A stretch of 64,000 nucleotides of DNA from positions 32,001 through 96,000 of IMG/VR virus record IMGVR_UViG_3300044844_000506; one strand, 5' to 3'. This DNA is from a virus. Numbering within the stretch: the first letter of the stretch is position 1; each line of letters opens with the position of its first letter. Below the pieces are notes generated by a model. It ran no database searches and was not told the DNA's origin. It saw only the letters and a program-made list of their open reading frames with translations. The position numbers were made by a program, and so were the translations under genes. Shown piece after piece: positions 33-34,300 of the stretch.

Positions 33-1625
33 CTAATTTTTTAGTCTTGTAATACCGTTCTTTTTTACAAGAGAAATTTTAGAATGTTCAGCTAATAAAT
101 CCTTCAAGGTTGAATTATGAGTAATAACAAGGATTAGTTTATCCTTGGAAAGTTCTTGAAGTAGATTGTATATTCCTTGTATCGACTCATCATCTATAGA
201 TTCAACTACTTCATCAAGTAATAAGAGATTAAACTTATTCTTGTTAGTAAACCCAAGAAGACCTTGCAAAGCCAATAATACAGCAAAGTTAATTTTCTTT
301 CTTTCACCACCAGATAAAGATGCAAAAATTATTTCCTCTCCATTGACAAATACCTTCTCTTGTAGAGAATCATCAAACATTACCATAAACTTACCATTAG
401 TAGTATATGAAAGGTAATGATTGCATCTGTCGTTGAAGTAATTTAAAACATTGCGAATAATATACTTAACAAAACCCTGTTCAGAGAAAACAATCTCCCA
501 GAACTTAAGTATATCTATATCTTTTGTTACAGTTCCCTTATCGGTATAAACACCAGACAGATTAGAGTTGTACTGCTCTTTTAAGTTATTTAACGTCTGT
601 ATTGAAACTTGTAACGAATGTAATTCATCTAGCTTCTTAAAATCACTAGAGGAGATAGGGATGTTTATATTGTTTAACTGAGACTTATAAAAATTACAGT
701 CTCCTGTTAATTTCTGTAGCTGATCTTCAAGTCTGAGAAGATCTTGATTACAAGCATCTTTCCAGTTATCAGGCTTTTTATTTAAGATTGAGTTACACTG
801 GTAGCAGACTTCGTGATCCTTGTTATTCTTAATTTCCTTCTGGATAACTTTGATTTCAGTTTCCACAGAGGATTTCGAATTACTAAGGTCTGAGTACTCT
901 TTTTCGAGATTACGCTTCTTTGCTTCGAGTTGTTCGATTGATTCAAGGGTGATATTTCCAATAAGATTGTTATTACGTTTGATTGTATCAATCTTTTCGT
1001 TAGCTGCCTTTACTTTGGATTCAATGTCCTTGATATTTTTATTGTATTCATTAATCAATGCATCCTTAGATTTTAATACTGAAGACTGAGTAGACTTGTA
1101 ATCCTTGATCTTGTCTCTCATCTTAAAGACTTCATCTAAGTTAAGGAAGTTCTTTAAGATAATTCTCTTGTCTTCTAAAGACGCTGAAATGAAGTCGAAA
1201 TCATTCTGTTGACCCCATACCGTTGAAGCTACAAATGTCTTGTAGTTTAGGTTGAAGTATTTTTCTACTTCTGCCTGAGTCGCGGTAATGGATTCTTGAG
1301 TTCTATCGTCACCATTTACAATGAATCTCAAGAAATTGGGTCTACGGGTACGTTCAATAACTACTCTTCCGTTGTCTAGTTTAATCCTGACTAGACATTC
1401 CTTCTTATGTTTGTTATTTACTAATGCCTCTTCCGTAGACTTGCGAATCGTCTTTCCATAAAGACCCCAAACTATAGCCTCAAAAATAGACGATTTACCA
1501 CTACCGTTACTGCCACCGATATCCTTATTCTTGCCTTCTACAAATACAATTCCGCTGTCATTAAACTCTAAACTAATATCTCCGATAGAGTAAAAGTTCT
1601 TAATCTCAATATTACTTAGGTTCAT
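33..1625 (-). CDS. gp46: Recombination endonuclease ATPase subunit (T4 gp46 / SbcC / Rad50-like)
   Basis: Walker A GSNGSGKSS, coiled coil with CYQC zinc hook, LSGGE signature, Walker B LLLDE, ITH; adjacent to Mre11-like gene. Confidence 0.95.
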   Translation of the reverse strand: MNLSNIEIKNFYSIGDISLEFNDSGIVFVEGKNKDIGGSNGSGKSSIFEAIVWGLYGKTIRKSTEEALVNNKHKKECLVRIKLDNGRVVIERTRRPNFLRFIVNGDDRTQESITATQAEVEKYFNLNYKTFVASTVWGQQNDFDFISASLEDKRIILKNFLNLDEVFKMRDKIKDYKSTQSSVLKSKDALINEYNKNIKDIESKVKAANEKIDTIKRNNNLIGNITLESIEQLEAKKRNLEKEYSDLSNSKSSVETEIKVIQKEIKNNKDHEVCYQCNSILNKKPDNWKDACNQDLLRLEDQLQKLTGDCNFYKSQLNNINIPISSSDFKKLDELHSLQVSIQTLNNLKEQYNSNLSGVYTDKGTVTKDIDILKFWEIVFSEQGFVKYIIRNVLNYFNDRCNHYLSYTTNGKFMVMFDDSLQEKVFVNGEEIIFASLSGGERKKINFAVLLALQGLLGFTNKNKFNLLLLDEVVESIDDESIQGIYNLLQELSKDKLILVITHNSTLKDLLAEHSKISLVKKNGITRLKN

Positions 1626-2631
1626 TTAATTCTTTAACTTTATTAAGAATCCCCATAACTTCTTCCTTAGAGTACGGGAAATCTAGTTTACTTAGATACT
1701 CTTCAAACGTAGCATCATTAAATTCACCAGGAGATACTAAATAAGGATTTTGGTTAGCTACTAATTCTAGGTCTGGATTGATATATTTAATATCAACGTA
1801 GTTAACCTTATACTCTTCTATTAGTTTCTTAATTAGATCAGGGATGTATACTTTATCTGAGGGATTTAGTAACACCCTGACAATGTTATAATACTTAACT
1901 GTGTCTAATTTTTTTGGTAGATCCTGAAGTTCTTGCAGGGTACAGTTAATGTATCTAGGTCCGCCTACGAACGGAACTTTTTCAAATACCGTTTTATTTG
2001 AATAGACTTTTAGAAGCCCAAGATTTCCTTTATGTTCAGCTTCGAAAAACGACGTTGGATATGGGGTTCCAAGTATCTCAATGTTGTGGTGAACGGTAGG
2101 ACGATGGATATGCCCAAGAAAAGTACGAGCGCAAAGCTGGCTAGGGTCAATACTAAAATCGTAATCACCGATAGAATTAATGCAGCCTCGATAGCCGAAA
2201 TGACCAAAAACATAATCGTCGCTGGTAACTTTGTTATCGTAGAGATAGTTATAAATTTTTTGCTCATCTTCATAGTGCGGAATAAGGTGTGCCGTTCTAC
2301 CACCTATTTCAATTATATAGGGCTTATTACATATTTTTACGTTATCGCTATTAAATAGACTTAAATAAGTTAAACCGTCATCTGATTTATTTGATGCATC
2401 ATGATTGCCCATTAAAACATAGCAATCCATGTCAATGTAATCAAATAATTCTTTGATCTTAAGTAATACCTCTGGAGTAGGTTTTCTCTTATCTGAGATA
2501 TCTCCTAAAAAGATAACCTGTTGGGGTTTATGCTTGTTGATATTATCTTTAATAGCTTGTATTTGGTGATCTAAATATCCAGGATACTTGTTATCAAAAT
2601 GAGTATCACCAATAATAAGATATTTAATCAT
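1612..2631 (-). CDS. gp47: Recombination endonuclease nuclease subunit (T4 gp47 / SbcD / Mre11-like)
   Basis: Metallophosphoesterase motifs GDTH, GD, GNHD, GHF, GHIH. Confidence 0.95.
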   Translation of the reverse strand: MIKYLIIGDTHFDNKYPGYLDHQIQAIKDNINKHKPQQVIFLGDISDKRKPTPEVLLKIKELFDYIDMDCYVLMGNHDASNKSDDGLTYLSLFNSDNVKICNKPYIIEIGGRTAHLIPHYEDEQKIYNYLYDNKVTSDDYVFGHFGYRGCINSIGDYDFSIDPSQLCARTFLGHIHRPTVHHNIEILGTPYPTSFFEAEHKGNLGLLKVYSNKTVFEKVPFVGGPRYINCTLQELQDLPKKLDTVKYYNIVRVLLNPSDKVYIPDLIKKLIEEYKVNYVDIKYINPDLELVANQNPYLVSPGEFNDATFEEYLSKLDFPYSKEEVMGILNKVKELNEPK

Positions 2632-3011
2632 ACAGGTGTTTCCTCTTTTTCACATTCATCACATAGAGTTTTTTCCCATCCCCATACAGTCATGGTTTTT
2701 CCAGCCTGTCCACAATATTCGCAAACTTTAGCTGATTTTATCTCTGCTTCATCTACAAAATCATAAAACAAATCTATGCCTAAATTTCCCTGCAATCTAA
2801 GTGTTCCATATTTTTCTTTAACGACTACTATACCCTGAAATTGTTTTTCAGGAATATTCTCTGGAAATTTTTCCATGTAGTCCATCATCTTAGAACAAGT
2901 TTCATCTACTATAGTGTTCCAACCTCTGCCACATTCAAATCTCTCTTTACCACTTCGCAAGTTACGAAACAGCATAGGATACTTTTCAATGATTTCTTTT
3001 TGGGTAATCAT
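2628..3011 (-). CDS. Conserved phage hypothetical protein with C-terminal zinc ribbon
   Basis: ECGRGW..KEKYGTLR motif, CEYC..CDEC; ATGA-coupled to neighbours. Confidence 0.75.
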   Translation of the reverse strand: MITQKEIIEKYPMLFRNLRSGKERFECGRGWNTIVDETCSKMMDYMEKFPENIPEKQFQGIVVVKEKYGTLRLQGNLGIDLFYDFVDEAEIKSAKVCEYCGQAGKTMTVWGWEKTLCDECEKEETPV

Positions 3012-3709
3012 AGTTCTATACCTAATCTATCTAGGTCTGTATTAATTTGATCTTTAATTAGCTTCGCATACATCTGAATCTCTTTCTGTGCATCTGGCTT
3101 AAGTCTCTGATTAAGGAAATGCAGAACTGCCTGTAGAGATACAGTCCAATAAGATTCAGAGTAGATATTTTGTGGAAGAACCAATCGGGCTTGTTCTCTA
3201 GCTACACCAGAGTCAATGAATGCTTTATATGTTCTATATGCCTCATCGCACGCTAATTTAATTCTATACTGTAAAACAACCTGATCTAATTCTGGATTAG
3301 AATCTGAAGATTGTTTATTGTGTTTGGTATTAGATCTAAATTCGTTAGGATAGAAAAACTCTGGTTCCAATTCTGTGTATCTACCAGACACTTCATTCCA
3401 TGAGCAACCTTTATCTGAATCATAAAGTTCGTTACTCATCCATGTAGAACCTATTTGATATTTCTTCCACTGATTAAATACAAAAATAGGTGCCTTGATA
3501 TGGAAGGTATAGTAGGTATGCCTGAATGGGCTGGTATGCTCATTATCCCATAAAAACTTTACTAACTTCTCATCCTTTTCATCAAATGCTTCTTTACGTT
3601 TGCCATGAGAGATTCTAGCTGCATTGACTACCTTTAATGCAGTATCGTGCTGCATTTTATCAACTAGATCAACAAAGCCAACATAATCATGAATAAATAA
3701 ACGAGTCAC
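3008..3709 (-). CDS. thyX: Flavin-dependent thymidylate synthase (divergent)
   Basis: VVNAARIS, HTSPF, NEVSGRY, REQARLVLP, AQKEI; RHR motif replaced by KYQ. Confidence 0.9.
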   Translation of the reverse strand: MTRLFIHDYVGFVDLVDKMQHDTALKVVNAARISHGKRKEAFDEKDEKLVKFLWDNEHTSPFRHTYYTFHIKAPIFVFNQWKKYQIGSTWMSNELYDSDKGCSWNEVSGRYTELEPEFFYPNEFRSNTKHNKQSSDSNPELDQVVLQYRIKLACDEAYRTYKAFIDSGVAREQARLVLPQNIYSESYWTVSLQAVLHFLNQRLKPDAQKEIQMYAKLIKDQINTDLDRLGIEL

Positions 3710-3984
3710 TCTGAAATTCCTTTATTACAGTCGCATTTGTTTGGGATGTATCCATAATTACTTATTGCATTACTGTCATATCCACAAGTAAAGCAATTCA
3801 TATGAAGTACAACACCAACTACTCTAATTTTATTAGTATTCTTAACTAATCTTGAAACAGATTCAGCTACTAGTAGTAGTGGTGAATCAGTATTATCATC
3901 CCAATATGTTGTTGTAGCTGGGATGCCCTCATTATCTATCCAATCAATTTCTACTTTCCATCTTTTACCGCTTGGCATAATCAC
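3706..3984 (-). CDS. Hypothetical protein (CxxC..CxC)
   Basis: ORF with 4-bp overlaps to both neighbours. Confidence 0.6.
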   Translation of the reverse strand: MIMPSGKRWKVEIDWIDNEGIPATTTYWDDNTDSPLLLVAESVSRLVKNTNKIRVVGVVLHMNCFTCGYDSNAISNYGYIPNKCDCNKGISE

Positions 3985-5105
3985 CTGTTAAGTACTTCCT
4001 CTCTGTTAATAATAGAGCCTGAGTTGCTAAATTTTACTTCTGTCTTAGCAGCAAAGTTGTTTCCAATACAAACTTCAATCTCAAGTGGAACCTTAAAGTT
4101 AAATCCTAAGGACTTTAGGAGTGGGTAGTTCCTGAGTTTATTGTACATGATTTGTAGTGTCTCTTCAGTATCATTCTTGTTTGAGATAACTTCAATAGAG
4201 TCATGTACAGTACCACAAACGTAAGAATCCAATCCACGATATTTTAACTCCCTATCTAGGTCAATTAGTCCGTAACAAACAATATCTGATGCTGAACTTT
4301 GAATGCCAAAGTTAATACCTTGACGATAACATCCATCTCTAACTTGCTGAACTGGTGAATCTACGTCTGGTAGATTTCTACGTCTTCCGAATAGAGATGT
4401 ACAGTACTTATTTTCTGTGATGGTGTTTTTTACCTCATCCATCCACTCGAAGACTCTGGGATATACTTCTTGGAACTTAGCGATTGTTCTTTCAGCTACT
4501 TCCATAGATACGTTAGCTGTTTTACTAAGTTTCCATGCACCACCACCGTATACTACAAGGAAGGATACTGACTTCGCAATCTGTCTCTCGTCATCTGTAA
4601 CTTTGCTTATTTCTTTCTCGTAGATAAGTGATGCTGTATATCTGTGAAGGTCTGCTCCTGAGTTAAAGGCTTTGATCATGTTAGTCTCATTAGCAATATG
4701 AGCTAACACTCTAAGTTCCATAGCTTTGAAGTCAGCAGTGATGAAATCATAGCCGACAGGAGAGATACAGCACTCTCGGATACTATCTACTTTTTCTCTG
4801 GGTAAGGTATGAAAGGATAATCCGAGGGGGAAATCCTTACCGTTCTTGATAGCCTTGTAGGCACCACAAGACAATCTTCCAGTAATTGTGCCTTCAGGAC
4901 GATAGTCAAAGTAAATACGGTCATTACCTGTATTGCTAAGAGCCTTCTTGGCTCCTGTAACATAGGTAGAATAAAGTTTCTCCTTTGCGCGATAAGTTTT
5001 GAGAGATGTGAAGAACTCAAGAGCTTGCTCCAACTTAGCTGTTGGTAAAGTCTCGATGTGCATCTTTGCAATATCTTCATCAGTTAACTTTTTCTTGTAG
5101 GCCAT
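3981..5105 (-). CDS. polA: Family A DNA polymerase, part 3 (palm/fingers)
   Basis: TGRLS, motif A DFKAMELRVLAH, motif B RQIAKSVSFLVVYG, motif C VHDS; start placed at MAYKKK (5105) rather than 5120. Confidence 0.93.
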   Translation of the reverse strand: MAYKKKLTDEDIAKMHIETLPTAKLEQALEFFTSLKTYRAKEKLYSTYVTGAKKALSNTGNDRIYFDYRPEGTITGRLSCGAYKAIKNGKDFPLGLSFHTLPREKVDSIRECCISPVGYDFITADFKAMELRVLAHIANETNMIKAFNSGADLHRYTASLIYEKEISKVTDDERQIAKSVSFLVVYGGGAWKLSKTANVSMEVAERTIAKFQEVYPRVFEWMDEVKNTITENKYCTSLFGRRRNLPDVDSPVQQVRDGCYRQGINFGIQSSASDIVCYGLIDLDRELKYRGLDSYVCGTVHDSIEVISNKNDTEETLQIMYNKLRNYPLLKSLGFNFKVPLEIEVCIGNNFAAKTEVKFSNSGSIINREEVLNR

Positions 5106-5658
5106 TAAAAATCTCAGCAATTAGAGAGCGTACCGTAACTTCAAATTCCTTCTCTGTCCCATTATTATAGATATGAATGGCCCCTTCTTTCCATAAATCC
5201 GCATTTTGGAATGCTGTTTCACTAGGGCTATCCCATATCTTGCGATTATAGCCTCTCTTTAGTAATTCTTTTTCCTGAACATCAATTTCAATTATGTATA
5301 CAGGTCTATCCTTGTAGTGATTCTTTACAACTCTAAGTTCATTGGGGAATCTACAATCACTAAAGATAATAACTTCATCATTCTCTGTATAGTAATTCTT
5401 GCTAATAGCCATGTCAACCCATACATCAGGGTTTAAGGATCTAGCAAGCATACCACCAAAAATAATAAACTCTCGATACTTTTCTTTATCTCTTTCTAAC
5501 TCTTCTAATGTTAGACCTAAATTAATAGCTGCCATCTTTTTAAGTTCATCAGCAAAAGCTATACGACGAATCTTAGAGTATTCTTTTCTGGCATACTTTA
5601 TAAAGGTGTCTTTACCAGACTTACTTCTTCCAATTAATAAAATTACTGGCATCTTCAT
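5080..5658 (-). CDS. Deoxynucleoside monophosphate kinase (T4 gp1 / phosphomevalonate-kinase-like P-loop)
   Basis: GRSKSGKDT P-loop, AFADELK, DVWV, SDCRFPNE. Confidence 0.85.
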   Translation of the reverse strand: MKMPVILLIGRSKSGKDTFIKYARKEYSKIRRIAFADELKKMAAINLGLTLEELERDKEKYREFIIFGGMLARSLNPDVWVDMAISKNYYTENDEVIIFSDCRFPNELRVVKNHYKDRPVYIIEIDVQEKELLKRGYNRKIWDSPSETAFQNADLWKEGAIHIYNNGTEKEFEVTVRSLIAEIFNGLQEKVN

Positions 5659-6140
5659 TTGCTTGATCTCTTTTCTAGTTCTGCTTCAATTAAGTTTTCT
5701 AAAGTCTCCATAGCATTCTTATCAACACTAGGAGATCCCTTGTCGGTTTTAGTAGGAGGGTACAATCCTAAACCTTCAGAATCATGATAGAATATCTTAA
5801 TAAGATCCTTATTAGATGCAATATTATATTCTTCTTTTACAAAAGGGAACGATAGAACCTTGGACTTAGCCTCATCAACTTTACTCTTAACTCTTGAATC
5901 TAGATTGCCTAAGGTTCCATTATCAATCAGCATACCTCTATTTTCAATATCAGCTAATACTGGGATTAAAGGTGATAAAAGATTCTTGTAATGATCTGTT
6001 AGGTCCAACTTCTGAAGCTCAGAATACATCTTATGAAATAGCATTAAAGTATAATAGCTATCCATAGCATTACCTTTAGCCATCTCAGAAAGGGGCATTG
6101 ACTCCCAATCCTGCTTCTTTCCATCTTTTACTGTTAACAT
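5655..6140 (-). CDS. polA: Family A DNA polymerase, part 2 (ExoIII helix plus thumb)
   Basis: GNAMD (ExoIII position), LIPVLADIENRGMLID, NIAS..L..IFY..LGL, KGSPSVD. Confidence 0.88.
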   Translation of the reverse strand: MLTVKDGKKQDWESMPLSEMAKGNAMDSYYTLMLFHKMYSELQKLDLTDHYKNLLSPLIPVLADIENRGMLIDNGTLGNLDSRVKSKVDEAKSKVLSFPFVKEEYNIASNKDLIKIFYHDSEGLGLYPPTKTDKGSPSVDKNAMETLENLIEAELEKRSSK

Positions 6141-7159
6141 TATAAAACCTCAAGGTTTTCTGGGAAGTATCTCTTAACTAAGTTAATTAACTTAGTATTC
6201 TGGTTCTCATCAATTAGGTGAGCCATGCCAGCGGTGTCCCAGATATTCTCCAATAATATGCCCTCACGGTCTAAAAATTTGTAATCGAACTTGGCATTCT
6301 GTAGAACTTTAATGTTATTTGGGTTGCCAGTCACAGAGTTAATTAAAGCATATAGATCTGTCTTGTCTTTGTTCAAGAAAGGAGACTCTCTATGATAGAT
6401 AGGAATAACAACACTAGCTACCCCTTCCGCATCCTTGTAAGAGATTGAGATAGTAAGAATCTTATCTGTTAAGAAGTTTAATCCATTAGTCTCAATGTCA
6501 ACAGAGACTGCTTCATCGGTTGAGTCCAGAGAGTTAGTAGAAATAATCTGTTTAAATTCTTGGAGATCTTTTACAACCGAGTATCTTAACTTTAGTGGAG
6601 TAATACTCTTATGAATAATCTTATTCAGAGCTAAAGATACATCGCTGATAATAACATCTCTGTACTTAGGCTCAATAAATAAGATTGATAGGCTATAAGT
6701 TGGAATTACAGGAATCTCATTATAATTAAATTCTGAGCCGTGATTCTTCTCAATACCAGACTTCTTCATTAGCATCTTAAATGCTAAGTTTCCCATAGGA
6801 ATGATCAGCTTGGGCTTTACAGCCTCTACAGTCTCTTCCAAGTACTTTCTACATACTTTCATGCTCTCAGCATCCATGTGCTTATCCTGCACTTGTGGAC
6901 ACTTTACGGAGGCAGAGATTGTATACTTTATATTTCCTAGTAGAGGCCCGATCACATCATTAAATAATGCCTCTGTTTGCTCAGATAAAACTAAACCCTC
7001 AAACCCATTAAATTGAAATGAGTCTACAAGAAATAGTATATCCGACTGACTTAGGTCTACATAATCCTTATAGCAGTGAAACGGTTTATTAATAGAAAGA
7101 ATCTTGCAACCTTGACATTCAGGGTTCTCGTTTTTCTTGTATAAATCTAAAAGACTCAT
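6140..7159 (-). CDS. polA: Family A DNA polymerase, part 1 (degenerate UDG family-4-like domain plus 3'-5' exonuclease ExoI/II)
   Basis: CxxC..VKC..C Fe-S ligands, KPKLIIPMGNLA, VIPTY; then VDIETNGL and QNAKFD, WDT. Confidence 0.88.
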   Translation of the reverse strand: MSLLDLYKKNENPECQGCKILSINKPFHCYKDYVDLSQSDILFLVDSFQFNGFEGLVLSEQTEALFNDVIGPLLGNIKYTISASVKCPQVQDKHMDAESMKVCRKYLEETVEAVKPKLIIPMGNLAFKMLMKKSGIEKNHGSEFNYNEIPVIPTYSLSILFIEPKYRDVIISDVSLALNKIIHKSITPLKLRYSVVKDLQEFKQIISTNSLDSTDEAVSVDIETNGLNFLTDKILTISISYKDAEGVASVVIPIYHRESPFLNKDKTDLYALINSVTGNPNNIKVLQNAKFDYKFLDREGILLENIWDTAGMAHLIDENQNTKLINLVKRYFPENLEVL

Positions 7160-7162
7160 AAA

Positions 7163-7168
7163 TATAAT
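7163..7168 (+). promoter_or_regulatory. TATAAT -10-like box 5 nt before gp55 start
   Basis: In 14-bp spacer between divergent ATGs. Confidence 0.5.
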
Positions 7169-7173
7169 AAAGT

Positions 7174-7527
7174 ATGGCGCAGTATATAGACAATAAAAGG
7201 TTTGAGTTTTTAGTTAGTTCTTACATATATGAAAGAACTGACAAAATCGAGGCAGAGCTTATAGAAAATCTGGACAAGCTGATAGATAATATCTTCTTGT
7301 CCTTTAATTTTAAGATAGACCACGAAGATGCGAAGCAAGATTGTTATTTGTTAATCTTCCGCGTAATGCGGAACTTTAAACCAGAAAACGGTAGTGCGTT
7401 TAATTACTTCACTACCGTTATCGTAAACAATCTAAGGTTACTGTACACTAAGAATAAAATCTATGCACAGAAACTAGAAAACTACATGAATATAAAATCC
7501 AACGATAAAGATTTACTTACAAGTTGA
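7174..7527 (+). CDS. gp55: Late-transcription sigma factor (T4 gp55-like, minimal)
   Basis: YIDNK N-terminus; NFKPENGSAFNYFTTVIVN matches the gp55 NFDP..NPFAYFTQI pattern. Confidence 0.8.
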   Translation: MAQYIDNKRFEFLVSSYIYERTDKIEAELIENLDKLIDNIFLSFNFKIDHEDAKQDCYLLIFRVMRNFKPENGSAFNYFTTVIVNNLRLLYTKNKIYAQKLENYMNIKSNDKDLLTS

Positions 7528-7845
7528 ATTCTTAATCTTAGGACTTACGAAGCTGCGCCTAATCAAATGAGGAATATCGTAAGTTCTATATTGTCTGCTG
7601 TCGCCCCAATAAGTCACTAAGGAAGGCGACCTATTGATTTTAAATCTATTGCTAAGTTCTGGCAGATCAAATAGATTAACCTCGTAAATCTGATCGTTGG
7701 TAGGACTTGAATTTAACTGCTCAAGAAGAGCGGCGCAATTATTGTCCTGCCAAGGGCTGAAGAAATAGAAGGTCTTTGAATCCGAAGTTTCTTCTGCTTC
7801 CTTGAGAAGAGAATAAAATTCAGATACAGTTGTAATTTTCTTCAT
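7513..7845 (-). CDS. Thioredoxin-fold protein lacking CxxC
   Basis: FYFFSPW, YEVNL..PEL..RFKI..SPSLV pattern; WQDNNC instead of WCxxC. Confidence 0.6.
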   Translation of the reverse strand: MKKITTVSEFYSLLKEAEETSDSKTFYFFSPWQDNNCAALLEQLNSSPTNDQIYEVNLFDLPELSNRFKINRSPSLVTYWGDSRQYRTYDIPHLIRRSFVSPKIKNSTCK

Positions 7846-8213
7846 AGAACTTCAATCTTACTTGATGTTGGAGAACCAGAAGCATTTAACATTTCAGGAT
7901 GTTCAGAGAAATACTTCTTTGCTTCCTCTGTAATCTGAGTATTAACTGCTTCTACACCCTTAAGGAAGATTGTCTTAATAAAGTCTTGCTCTGAAAGACT
8001 TTCAGGCTTAATCATTTCCATAAATGACTTATAGCCTTCTGCTTCTTCTTTGGATAAATCAATATAAATCTTCATTTTTCTAACTATTCCTTTGTTGGAA
8101 ACTTTTTCACGAATACGAACACCACTATTTCTTAATGATAAATGTAAAACATCTTTACCTTTAACGGTAATATTTACATCATGATCATTAAGTGTACTTA
8201 AACTATTAGACAT
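7842..8213 (-). CDS. Hypothetical protein
   Basis: 123-aa ORF, ATGA-coupled downstream. Confidence 0.65.
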   Translation of the reverse strand: MSNSLSTLNDHDVNITVKGKDVLHLSLRNSGVRIREKVSNKGIVRKMKIYIDLSKEEAEGYKSFMEMIKPESLSEQDFIKTIFLKGVEAVNTQITEEAKKYFSEHPEMLNASGSPTSSKIEVL

Positions 8214-8231
8214 TTTTTTAAGCTCTGGATT

Positions 8232-8269
8232 CTATAATATACTCAGATAGATAATTCTATCTATTATAG
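8232..8269. promoter_or_regulatory. Palindromic bidirectional promoter region
   Basis: CTATAAT..AGATAGA-TAAT-TCTATCT-ATTATAG; TATAAT on both strands between divergent genes. Confidence 0.5.
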
Positions 8270-8289
8270 AGAGGACGAGTTTAAAAAAT

Positions 8290-8814
8290 ATGGAAGATCG
8301 AGTATCAGCAGAGGATTTGTTGAAGTTGAAGAAAAAGAAACGGGTCAATAGCCGTACAAAAGGTAATGCGTTTGAACGAAAGGTTGCATCAATACTAAAT
8401 GAGTACCATGAGACTTCAGACTTTTGCAGAACTCCAGGTTCAGGTGCATTCGCTACAACACACAAACTACCGAAGCATCTTCAAGTTAAAGGAGATTTAA
8501 TTACTCCAACAAACTATCCTTTTGTAATAGAGTGTAAGAAAGGTTATAAGTTCTCTATATCTGATTGTTTAAATCTTAAATCAGATTTTAGAGAAATTAT
8601 AAACAAGATAGAAAAAGAAGCTAAAGACAGTAATAAACTTCCATTACTAATCTTTCAACAAGATAGACAATCTGTATACTGTTTAACTACATTAAATAAC
8701 TACAGTATAAAGATAGACCTATCTACTGTAGATTCTTATCTTTTACTAGATAATAAATATCTAGTAATTCCGTTATCATACCTTCTAAAAACTCTTCCGA
8801 AATACTTTCATTAG
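8290..8814 (+). CDS. Holliday junction resolvase (Hjc-type PD-(D/E)XK)
   Basis: SRTKGNAFER, RTPGSGA, GDLI, IECK. Confidence 0.85.
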   Translation: MEDRVSAEDLLKLKKKKRVNSRTKGNAFERKVASILNEYHETSDFCRTPGSGAFATTHKLPKHLQVKGDLITPTNYPFVIECKKGYKFSISDCLNLKSDFREIINKIEKEAKDSNKLPLLIFQQDRQSVYCLTTLNNYSIKIDLSTVDSYLLLDNKYLVIPLSYLLKTLPKYFH

Positions 8815-31309: not shown

Positions 31310-34300
31310 TTAATTTTTCCTTGACAAATCAAAGATATTTACTGACAACAATCCAAATCCATGTCCAATAGCTGAAGTAGAGAAAGACTCAGAGCCTTCA
31401 GTATTTCTACTTCTATAAATAGTGCAGAATGGTACTCTTCCTGATCTAGCGGTAGCTCCGTTCTTTGCATTAGCAAAAGTATCTGCTGCGGATTCATCAA
31501 GTCTAATTCTAGTTCTATAGGAAGAATCAATCATAGCAGAAGTTGTTAAGAAAGCTGAAGCAGATCCTAACGTCTTATAGATCGAGGATACTTCAGGTGC
31601 AGCACTTACTGATCCAGAAGGATTGTATCCTTGTGCCCAAGTTTGATACGCAGAGTTATAAATTAAACCTGTGGTGTAGTAGTTTAAGAACTTAGCTGCA
31701 CCATCAACTGCAACCATGAGCCTGAATGGTCCGTAGTTTGTTCCTGCTGTAGCTCCTGAAGCTCCATAGAAGTCTAGAACACTTAGCCTACCTGTATCAG
31801 GGACCGTAGTTGGAGCAGCAGAGGCTGGAACTCCACCAGATAAGTATACAGCAGAAGGACCATAGTAACCTGCTAAACTTGGATATAAACCACTTACTGA
31901 ACAGTAAGAAGCATTTAAGAATGAGTCAGGGCCAATGTTCCATATTCTTAATAAATCACAATTACCACCAGAACTGACATCATACAAGATTCCTGAGGTA
32001 TTATCCCATCCACAAGGGAAGTGTACGTTCTTAACATTAACAATACTTCCATCAATGGCTCTTACACACATACCACCAGTAGAATACTTGAGTATATCTG
32101 CGTTAGCCCCAACTAAATTCCAATCTAGTAATATACTATCAGTAGTTACTACGTTATTAGTTTCTAGTCCAGCGTTACCACCAGTTTCTCCAATATCATA
32201 TCTTGTAGGAGTTCCTATTACAGCAGTTTCATCTTGTCCATTTGGATAAAACTGCATATAGCCAGCAGAAACATAAGTTTGAATGTTTAGTCCATTATTC
32301 TGATTATAGTCTGTTGATGAGGTTTGTGATGCGGGCCAGAAAGAATTAAAATCTCCTAAGTTTTCCATATTGATTATGGAATTCTTATTAGCAACTAAAC
32401 AAGCTCTTGTTGAATGTAATTCAATCAAGCTATGATTAGTAGCTGATGATAGATCAAACGAGGATGCTAATATATTACCTTCATCGTCTCTGTGTGGTAC
32501 AAAGTTAATTACAGATCCATTCTCTGCTAGTACGTCAATACCTGCATTACAAATTAAAGTTGGACCTTGGAATTCAACTATTGAATTATTATTAGCATAT
32601 ACGTTTGCAGTGTATTTCTGTGCAGCATAGATAGGTGGACCTTGTAAGAACGAGATCTTACTACCATCACCAGCACAAACTAATTTAGAGTTATCACTTA
32701 CGTTTGCAAGTAATCCATAGATTACTTTATTAGATCCTGCAAATCCACTTTGATTATTTGTTATGTAAGGTCTAATAAGTTTAGCTGTAGAGTTATTTGA
32801 AATCTTTACTGCTGGAACGCTAATCTCATTTCCTAACTCCTCTACTGTTCCTGTAGAATACTTAACATAGAATGGACCGTACTTAGTTGGTAAACTTGCC
32901 CCTTCTGTGTACATTAACTGACTATTATTAAGATCTAAGTTTATTCCGTTACGATGGAAATACAACTGACCATAGCCATCTAAATCTACTGACTTAGTAA
33001 ATTGATATAAGTCTGGGTTATATTGTATATGAGACTGATCAGCTTTTAATCCAGCAGTTTGATTATATTCAAATGTTCCTTCATTTAAAGATAAGTCAGA
33101 TTCTACCATCCACATTCCAATATCATTAGAATGCACATCTAGTCTTCCAGGAACTTCCATAGTAGATTCATTCATCTTAATTCCTATGTTGTTATGGAAA
33201 GATTGAATGAATGTCATTCCTGATGCAGAAGTTACGTCTTTTCTTGAAGTTCCACCAGACCACTTAGAATTAATTAACTCAATACCATAGTAATTTTTAG
33301 TAGAATGAATTATAGCCTCTACACCTGAAACATAAGGTGAACTACTAACAACAATATTACTATTTATTGCTCTAATGCCAGCAGATTTATATGAAGATTT
33401 AATTCTAGAAGTTACGAGTGTATAGTTACGCATTGAAACTATACCTCTATTGATTACTACTTCAGATGATGTAAATTTAAATCCTGCTTCTTTACAACGA
33501 ATTGCTAAAGAGTTTTCTAATATTACTCTACTATTCTGAATATCAAAACCATTTACAGTATTGTGTTCTAAGTTTGATAGTTGTGCTAATCCACCATCTA
33601 CGGCAAAATTTCTAATATAGATAGGTCCATTACAATTTGTAACATTTATTTGATTAAAATAGTTACCGTAGAAATAACCTGTAATTGGATAAGAGGAGAC
33701 TGTTGCTACCTTAATATCAACTCGACCATTAGTTTCTACGTTAGTATTGCTACCAGTCATATAACTGTCATCTAACGTATTATAAGATTTAAAGTCTGCA
33801 CTACTTGAGAAGTCTCTAGTTTCATCATACTCTAAAGGATTCAAAGAACTAGCATTAGCATTACTAAAAATTGTTGCACTTGTACTAGTTGATGGAACAG
33901 ATAATATGGAAGAGCCTGGGCCTGTTGCAACTGCTAAATCTTGATATCCATGTGCTCTATTGTAATAAACAATACAATTTGATTTATTCCATCTAGTATC
34001 AGCAGATACATCAACTGAACTACAAACTTTTGTATTTATAGATACAGCACTTGTTGCAGCAAGTGTATCAAATAAATCACCTGAAGAAGGTTGTGAGTTA
34101 ACACCAACTAATACAGTCTTAAGTCCTGTAGAAGTTTTACCATAAATTTTAGAGAAGTTTCGGTTTACTATTTCTAATCCACCGTTATCTTTAAATTTTA
34201 GGTTTCTTAAATCTAAAGTACCTAAGTTTCCGAAACTAGCAACTTCAATAATTATAGGATGAGCAATAACTTCAGGTAGTGCTAAAATAGCTGCACTTAC

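Follow-up and report, generated by a model that had tools for sequence, protein, structure and literature searches.

Family A DNA polymerases (PolAs) are textbook single-chain enzymes. The subject of this report is a PolA whose parts are encoded by three separate genes, here called P1, P2 and P3, with the gene for a deoxynucleoside monophosphate (dNMP) kinase-like protein lying between the second and the third. The genes occupy the minus strand of a 64,000-nt stretch of viral DNA, positions 32,001 to 96,000 of IMG/VR record IMGVR_UViG_3300044844_000506, and this whole stretch is referred to below as the window.

The first split of a PolA gene to be reported, in 2023, was the exo|pol fission of the S-SBP1 and S-TIP37-like (clade B) T7-like cyanophages (PMC10201439; also PMC12695635), and the non-covalent association of the two S-SBP1-like halves was inferred from an AlphaFold model (PMC10201439). 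In the OM43 phages MEP401 and MEP402, PolA is split within PF00476 and a small open reading frame (ORF) occupies the gap, an arrangement shared by most related metagenomic genomes (PMC10580990). A divided PolB is known from T4-related Aeromonas phages and from RM378, in which the genes for gp43A and gp43B lie 2 bp to 3 kb apart and the cut falls in the exposed tip of a subdomain, according to the summary of Petrov et al. given in PMC3061061. PolAs that carry a domain resembling uracil-DNA glycosylase (UDG) are found in the N4-like phages of cluster 17 and in phages of the SPO1, SP-10 and SP-15 type (Czernecki et al. 2023, PMC10201439). Our reading of the literature turned up no description of a PolA in three pieces, nor of one cut inside the exonuclease site.

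A PolA encoded by three genes

The locus is most probably a naturally fissioned UDG-type PolA, in which one translationally coupled operon gives rise to three polypeptides that would work as a non-covalent heterotrimer, with the kinase as a passenger. The gene structure, its conservation, the purifying selection acting on it and the positions of the cuts are matters of direct observation. P1 (6140-7159, minus strand; 339 aa) encodes a family-4-UDG-like domain with four conserved cysteines, followed by the ExoI (DIET) and ExoII (NAKFD) motifs of a 3'-5' exonuclease fold. It matches the UDG family PF03167 at 4e-08 and PF01612 at 6.4e-16, the latter over profile positions 3-128 of 173, and is colinear with residues 107-311 of P0295, a fused UDG-PolA. 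P2 (5655-6140, minus strand; 161 aa) holds the ExoIII helix, connecting helices and thumb helix H, in which a KT.KG.PS motif occurs; at its C terminus is an amphipathic tail helix (ENLIEAELEKRSSK). This secondary structure was read from the model of a natural fusion, P0223, considered below. P2 aligns to Klenow residues 485-617 at 4e-11. P3 (3981-5105, minus strand; 374 aa from its ATG, or 379 aa from a TTG at 5120) begins with a head helix and continues with thumb helix I, the palm and the fingers. It aligns to the polymerase domains of Bst and Klenow at about 1e-34, the alignment to Klenow beginning at residue 627.

P3 has the features that define family A, namely the motif A aspartate (Klenow D705), motif B (R-x3-K-x3-F/Y-x3-Y-G) and motif C (HD[ES]); in the window these read ADFKAMELR, RQIAKSVSFLVVYGG and VHDS, and they are invariant or nearly so in 65 homologues. 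The thumb-palm-fingers fold is complete solely as the sum of two genes, with PF00476 positions 4-70 of 381 in P2 (a match under the curated cut-off) and positions 60-380 in P3 (at 3e-71). All three pieces tile a single profile, phrog_17, colinearly and far beyond chance (P1 on 478-784, P2 on 793-927, P3 on 927-1238), and P1, P2 and P3 therefore add up to one complete UDG-exonuclease-polymerase enzyme.

No non-coding sequence is left between the genes in the window. P1 and P2 meet at 6138-6153 (GAGGttttaTAATG), where a GAGG Shine-Dalgarno sequence precedes TAATG and the stop and start codons share 1 nt. P2 and the kinase gene (5080-5658, minus strand; 192 aa) overlap by 4 nt at 5655-5658, an ATGA that reads AAATGA in context. 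At the third junction (5080-5105, minus strand) the P3 ATG, at 5105 and preceded by GAGatttttA, falls within the kinase gene, 26 nt from its 3' end. Shine-Dalgarno sequences stand 5' of both the P2 and the P3 starts, and in two related contigs, L082 and L084, the P3 homologues align from residue 1 of the ATG form. An initial annotation, made from the sequence of the window, had read the operon as three PolA genes with a kinase gene inside, and all four minus-strand ORFs and their junctions are as it described them.

Conservation of the split

A search of 5.8 billion proteins returned 836 homologues of P3. The best 120 of these are all 246-394 aa long and 44-94% identical to P3, most with over 90% query coverage; P0003-P0011 among them are 56-67% identical. 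The initial annotation had allowed that relatives might carry a contiguous PolA, and this is not so: P3 homologues of about 370 aa number in the hundreds (44-94%), whereas proteins of at least 656 aa match P3 at best at 28-36% identity, against up to 94% for the split homologues. Stand-alone homologues of P2, from a full HMMER scan clustered at 50% identity, form about 90 clusters of 157-181 aa that align end to end.

Using the P3 alignment, 80 IMG/VR loci were collected, and the junction and breakpoint counts given here rest on them; a scan of viral contigs with a single protein found nothing, one with the sub-clade alignment A2 returned solely distant PolAs (26-31%), and one with the protein P0239 as query gave no useful locus. 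P2 and P3 are both present in 75 of the 80 loci and all three pieces in 69, and in no locus do any two pieces share an open frame. Checked across these related contigs, the breakpoints proved constant on the query: the P1 match ends at about residue 337-339, that of P2 runs from 1 to about 158, and that of P3 begins at about 1-12. Between the P1 stop and the P2 ATG the overlap is 1 nt in 43 loci and 4 nt in 5; it reads TAATG 34 times and TGATG 7 times, and the P2 start is an ATG overlapping the P1 stop in 66 of 75 loci. In loci without the kinase, P3 has an ATG or GTG start at a homologous site and shares 4-8 nt with the end of P2. Inserts of 184-2403 nt separate P1 from P2 in more than 20 loci; several of them hold genes on the opposite strand, and the pieces on either side are intact.

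Since the record is metagenome-assembled, single frameshift errors are possible, and the locus might in principle be an assembly or sequencing artefact, or a decaying pseudogene. The frames and breakpoints are, however, identical in 75 independent contigs from many samples. L082 and L084, two further metagenome contigs from other samples with about 77% DNA identity to the window, have the same order (P1, P2, kinase, P3) with all frames intact. Between the window and these two, the proportion of nonsynonymous differences (pN) is 0.07-0.20 and that of synonymous differences (pS) 0.57-0.81, and the ratio of the corresponding rates (dN/dS) is below 0.1 wherever dS could be calculated. The pieces also make up what appears to be the sole DNA polymerase of a complete genome. 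Conserved frames and breakpoints together with purifying selection thus exclude an artefact or pseudogene, to which we give a negligible probability, and the split is natural.

Separate polypeptides or a rejoined chain

Phage PolA genes often contain group I introns and inteins (cited in PMC10580990), and the gene overlaps at this locus are short. The pieces might accordingly be joined into one chain by RNA splicing, with the kinase gene as an intron ORF, by programmed frameshifting or bypassing, or by trans-splicing of a split intein. The initial annotation had seen no intron or intein hallmarks, and closer searching agrees: no Rfam family matched positions 3000-8500 on either strand at E values up to 1, no Hint or intein Pfam domain matched any of the pieces, and the ends that would have to be joined (P1 ...ENLEVL to P2 MLTVKD, P2 ...EKRSSK to P3 MAYKKK) lack the residues of split inteins (a Cys or Ser start; HN followed by Cys, Ser or Thr). 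Relatives that lack the kinase have P2 and P3 in direct overlap, leaving nothing to splice, and start codons with their Shine-Dalgarno sequences are conserved at both junctions. Several loci have opposite-strand genes between P1 and P2, so that fusion by read-through or frameshifting is impossible there. A rejoined chain is very improbable on these grounds.

The initial annotation had gone on to propose a heterotrimeric PolA. Three separately translated and conserved pieces are borne out, while their physical assembly into a trimer stays a prediction. Assembly is well supported by comparison of the sequences, and the activity and the order of events given below are probable on the same grounds. 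From P1 would come the UDG-like domain together with half of the proofreading site (ExoI and ExoII); P2, with the ExoIII helix and the first thumb helix, would bridge the exonuclease and polymerase domains and so tie P1 to P3; P3 would make up the palm, the fingers and the remainder of the thumb. Translated from one coupled operon, the three polypeptides would most likely form a working non-covalent heterotrimer.

Active-site motifs

Motif conservation was assessed over 56-65 unique homologues (56 for P1, 65 for P3). The acidic residues of the exonuclease are at least 95% conserved, with the D/E of ExoI and the D of ExoII in P1 and the D of ExoIII in P2. The elements expected of a DEDDy exonuclease (DxE in ExoI, Nx2-3[FY]D in ExoII, and the ExoIII aspartate) are thus all present in a site divided between two chains, as the initial annotation had supposed of the proofreading site. 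The tyrosine of ExoIII, which in Klenow is Y497 and stands four positions ahead of the aspartate, has given way to glycine in the window, where the motif reads GNAMD (P2 residues 22-26, window 6063-6077). Every split form, two-part and three-part, has G-N-A-x-D, and fused relatives have Y-x3-D, an assignment on which phmmer and MAFFT agree; the change from tyrosine to glycine coincides with the cut in the exonuclease domain.

The UDG-like domain of P1 (window 6680-7120) departs from its relatives at both catalytic motifs. Motif A (GE[AG]PG) is GEAPG in the fused relatives and is replaced by LVDSF in the window and by LSDS or [SV]D[SA] across the clade. The histidine of motif B (HP[SAT]) is lost in the window (YSLS); marine relatives have HP[YA], and fused relatives YHP[TAS]. 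The clade conserves four cysteines of the [4Fe-4S] type (C15, C18, C86 and C102 of P1), which align to cysteines of the fused UDG-PolAs. Because motifs A and B are replaced, the domain is probably non-catalytic and structural, and not a glycosylase.

Such replacements would also fit an explanation in which the pieces do not all belong to one enzyme, P2 and P3 forming the polymerase and P1 acting independently (for example as a processivity factor or DNA-binding protein derived from a dead UDG fold), with proofreading lost or reduced. The exchange of the ExoIII tyrosine for glycine in all split forms, the altered motif A, together with the loss of the motif-B histidine in the window, and the spacing of up to 2.4 kb between P1 and P2 in some relatives are all in its favor. 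On the other hand, the conservation of the ExoI, ExoII and ExoIII acids is difficult to account for unless they share a metal site, the stop of P1 and the start of P2 are coupled in 48 loci, and the last helix of P1's own fold is carried by P2. An independent P1 is, in our judgment, quite improbable.

Position of the cuts

The cuts were mapped with the help of P0223, a natural P2+P3 fusion of 563 aa that is 31% identical to P2 and 39% to P3. An AlphaFold model of this protein, built on an alignment that included the split pieces, has a mean predicted local distance difference test (pLDDT) score of 89.9 and superposes on Klenow and Bst with Z of 38.9-39.4 (434-438 residues aligned, root-mean-square deviation 2.2-2.7). 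Because residue 1 of P0223 falls on Klenow 471 and Bst 423, the model places the first cut within the exonuclease domain, after ExoII (Klenow D424, on the P1 side) and before ExoIII (Y497/D501, on the P2 side). In a model of the fused P0295 (pLDDT 77; residues 198-847 on Klenow 326-926, Z 41.8), the segment that matches this cut is residues 314-403, with pLDDT below 50, a weak hint that the exonuclease was cut in a flexible loop.

In the thumb region of the P0223 model, a helix at 149-168 (equivalent to the P2 tail) is followed by a disordered linker at 171-179 (pLDDT below 50), a helix at 183-197 (the P3 head) and a long helix at 200-237, and the thumb cut is predicted to sit in the linker between the first two helices. 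The initial annotation had put the splits inside the exonuclease and thumb domains and had taken the new ends at the thumb cut to be helical. Both ideas hold, the splits corresponding to Klenow ~470/471 (between ExoII and ExoIII) and ~618-626, and the ends to the helices at 149-168 and 183-197. The distance between the ...PS[TV]D....L motif and helix I is 3-5 residues in unsplit PolAs, 12-16 in two-part forms, and about 45 in the three-part forms and in P0223. Only a modest amount of sequence is added at the thumb cut, the P2 tail accounting for about 14 residues and the P3 head for about 30. Charge complementarity of these two segments (mean -1.0 for the tail, +2.0 for the head) was considered, found to be weak and variable, and not used as evidence. 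Both cuts would lie in flexible, insertion-prone loops.

Order of the two cuts

Four proteins, P0239, P0236, P0244 and P0223, represent two-part forms, and all begin with MLT[VI], like P2. At the locus of P0223 (L097, 2734-6384), a P1-like gene is followed by a 92-aa ORFan, the fused P2+P3 gene and ThyX, in the same synteny as in the window. Its P1-like gene is 38% identical to the P1 of the window and has the UDG domain and PF01612 positions 1-128, and the fused gene retains equivalents of the P2 tail and the P3 head. The 92-aa ORF of L097 is not homologous to the ORF of the same length downstream of P3 in the window. When fused PolAs are used to root the tree, the two-part forms branch off at its base, with the three-part clade nested inside. 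A related virus thus has the first cut only, and fission was therefore probably stepwise, the exonuclease being cut earlier and the thumb later, within a lineage-specific insertion in the thumb.

The kinase and other genes at the junctions

The P-loop dNMP-kinase-like gene is an accessory insertion at the junction of P2 and P3. Residues 1-183 of its product match phrog_139, 'deoxynucleoside monophosphate kinase', at 6e-31, and it has no domain beyond the kinase fold. PF04275 matches at 6.8e-12 (45.8 bits), and PF21448 (T4 gp1-like) scores 17.9 bits against a cut-off of 27.1. The P-loop reads GRSKSGKDT, and the protein is 25-34% identical to phage proteins annotated as dNMP kinases; a search by sequence found no solved structural relative.

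At this junction the kinase gene is found only in the lineage of the window (the window, L082 and L084) and in L002/3/4/7, with 34% identity between the two lineages. About 70 of 75 informative loci lack it there. Among them are L005 and L006, placed with L002 in the tree, in which the P2 stop overlaps the P3 ATG directly. Four long related genomes, of which one is 100% complete, yielded no kinase homologue at any position to either a protein search or the phrog_139 profile. Judged from the sequences, one gain followed by one loss and two separate gains are equally parsimonious. The gene is best read as an accessory nucleotide-metabolism gene in a replication operon near ThyX.

The initial annotation had suggested that the kinase might couple the polymerase to nucleotide supply, an idea that fares poorly given its patchy distribution among lineages and its absence from the four long genomes. 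In its fuller form this explanation makes the kinase a functional fourth component, docking on the polymerase or placed for stoichiometric co-production, so that dNMP phosphorylation is coupled to synthesis. Translational coupling on both sides, purifying selection (pN 0.13, pS 0.72-0.77), the presence of ThyX just downstream, and a junction that is identical in the window lineage and in L002/3/4/7 despite their divergence can all be cited for it. Such a role nonetheless looks unlikely when so many informative loci lack the gene, the nested L005/L006 among them, when the long related genomes have no homologue, when the protein has nothing beyond a kinase fold, and when relatives have unrelated genes at the other polymerase junction. 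A more specific proposal, that the kinase binds the new helical ends of the thumb (the P2 tail and the P3 head) in a four-protein replicase that feeds in phosphorylated nucleotides, with fission sites recruiting subunits, is improbable. As a passenger, the kinase would be co-transcribed and translationally coupled between P2 and P3 and would not be a subunit.

Other genes occupy the P1|P2 junction in relatives. In one locus of 69, L017, a 205-aa HNH_3 homing endonuclease gene (5844-6461, plus strand) lies exactly between P1 and P2 (PF13392 at 4.9e-10, phrog_20891 at 1.9e-30), which is consistent with endonuclease traffic at the fission site. Marine relatives have opposite-strand ORFs of 164-207 aa at the same junction (L009, 5960-6454; L010, 5988-6542; L030, 5913-6536; all minus strand), a family with a lipoprotein-like signal, a Gly/Ala-rich stretch and no Pfam or PHROG match. 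A 91-aa membrane-like ORF, on the same strand as the polymerase genes, is found there in L032 (695-970), L033 (6257-6532) and L049 (6217-6492, all plus strand); it has ATGA-type overlaps at both ends and occurs on two separate branches of the P3 tree. Basic ORFan genes are further cargo at P1|P2. With inserts of HNH, lipoprotein-like, membrane-like and ORFan types, the junctions are therefore insertion sites for varied cargo, and in the proposed history the gene junctions created by the cuts would have become later landing sites for accessory genes. In L069 (6590-7040), where a 1.6-kb basic-ORFan insert lies upstream, P2 is broken, with residues 1-87 in one frame and 108-139 in another, which may reflect a sequencing error or a decaying copy.

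Several points weigh against the account of a stepwise-fissioned, three-chain polymerase with a passenger kinase. The case for assembly and activity is comparative throughout. With the ExoIII tyrosine lost in all split forms, the chemistry of proofreading may be altered or weak. The low pLDDT at residues 314-403 of P0295 may be due in part to a thin alignment in that region. The tree has long branches in its two-part and fused rows and SH-aLRT support only, which leaves the order of the cuts insecure, and P0223 could be a secondary re-fusion. Finally, the presence of the kinase at the same junction in two sister lineages at 34% identity could point to long retention and a selective benefit of its position.

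Genomic context

The window comes from an IMG/VR record of 111,612 bp (of which it is bases 32001-96000) that has direct terminal repeats and is rated 100% complete. The phage is a myovirus and encodes a tail sheath, a gp23-type major head protein and a gp21-type prohead protease. Uncultured 'Far-T4' phages were described by Roux et al. 2015 (PMC4360716), where a polymerase split is unmentioned. The capsid protein is 26-34% identical to those of the Rhodothermus phage RM378 and of KVP40-type phages, and on this basis the freshwater T4-like phage appears to belong among the Far-T4 phages. No PolB was detectable in the complete genome, and the split PolA would thus be the only recognizable DNA polymerase of a complete 111.6-kb Far-T4-like myovirus. 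With the whole region as query, blastn found no match among cultured phages, and the best matches to P3 among cultured phages are the PolAs of Gordonia and of SPO1-like Bacillus phages (31-34%). The gp45-type clamp profile PF02916 had no match in a search in which controls were equally blank, and scans for promoters and terminators gave results at chance level.

Downstream of the polymerase genes, ThyX (3008-3709, minus strand; PF02511 at 2.6e-41) follows P3 closely. The region 33-3709 also holds, all on the minus strand, the 92-aa ORFan downstream of P3, a 127-aa Cys-rich ORFan, and genes for SbcD/gp47-like and SbcC/gp46-like nuclease subunits. The order P3, small ORF, ThyX recurs in L097. 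Immediately 5' of the polymerase operon, a lone plus-strand ORF of 117 aa (7174-7527) stands among the minus-strand genes and has no Pfam or PHROG match. Its middle part (NGSAFNYFTTVIVNNL) may resemble the region-2-like motif of T4 gp55-type late sigma factors.

Implications

A large and environmentally widespread clade of uncultured T4-like aquatic phages appears to have replaced PolB with a three-chain PolA. In such an enzyme the metal site for proofreading would be built from two polypeptides, and a piece of 161 residues would staple the exonuclease domain to the polymerase domain. If assembly is confirmed, the enzyme would show how far nature can fragment the fold of an active site, and it would offer natural split points for engineered split Pol I enzymes. 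Fission junctions in an essential operon have also turned into insertion sites, taking in a kinase gene, an HNH endonuclease gene and ORFan genes. Annotation pipelines, and surveys in which polA serves as the marker, will record such phages as having truncated or exonuclease-less polymerases.

Comparison with known systems

The known UDG-PolAs share with the window a family-4-UDG-like domain, a 3'-5' exonuclease, a polymerase and a Phe at B3, and in the N4-like members the UDG domain is inactive (PMC10201439) and, as in the window, its catalytic motifs are not conserved. These enzymes are, however, single chains of about 800-900 aa, and the closest fused one found here, P0295, is 36% identical to P3 and 27% to P1. 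The MEP401/MEP402 enzymes resemble that of the window in being cut inside PF00476 with an unrelated gene in the gap; they differ in being in two pieces rather than three, in belonging to podoviruses, and in that the inserted ORF is without known function. The breakpoint of MEP401 was compared with that of the window and rejected as the same, falling at PF00476 132/154 rather than 60-70.

The gp43A/gp43B pair, as far as it is described in the summary cited above, likewise places the replicative polymerase of T4-type phages in adjacent genes. A split family A polymerase in RM378 was considered and rejected: no P3 homologue was found in RM378, and PMC3061061 calls its split enzyme PolB. From the same description, gp43A/gp43B is a PolB in two pieces, whereas the window has a PolA in three. 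Another instance is the nrdA gene of phage Aeh1, which Friedrich and colleagues are said to have described in 2007 as split by mobE, a free-standing homing endonuclease leaving an essential enzyme gene in pieces whose products reassemble. The arrangement at L017 is alike in that an endonuclease gene sits in the gap of a split essential gene. In the window, by contrast, the gap holds a kinase gene, and an endonuclease is present at only one of 69 loci.

A parallel in gene arrangement may be drawn with the S-SBP1-like split PolA, in which the products of fission are also encoded by adjacent genes and a start codon overlaps the new stop. The S-SBP1-like enzyme is in two pieces, cut at the boundary between exonuclease and polymerase domains, and comes from a podovirus. 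That of the window is a UDG-PolA in three pieces, cut inside domains, and comes from a T4-like myovirus, and the two lineages are unrelated.

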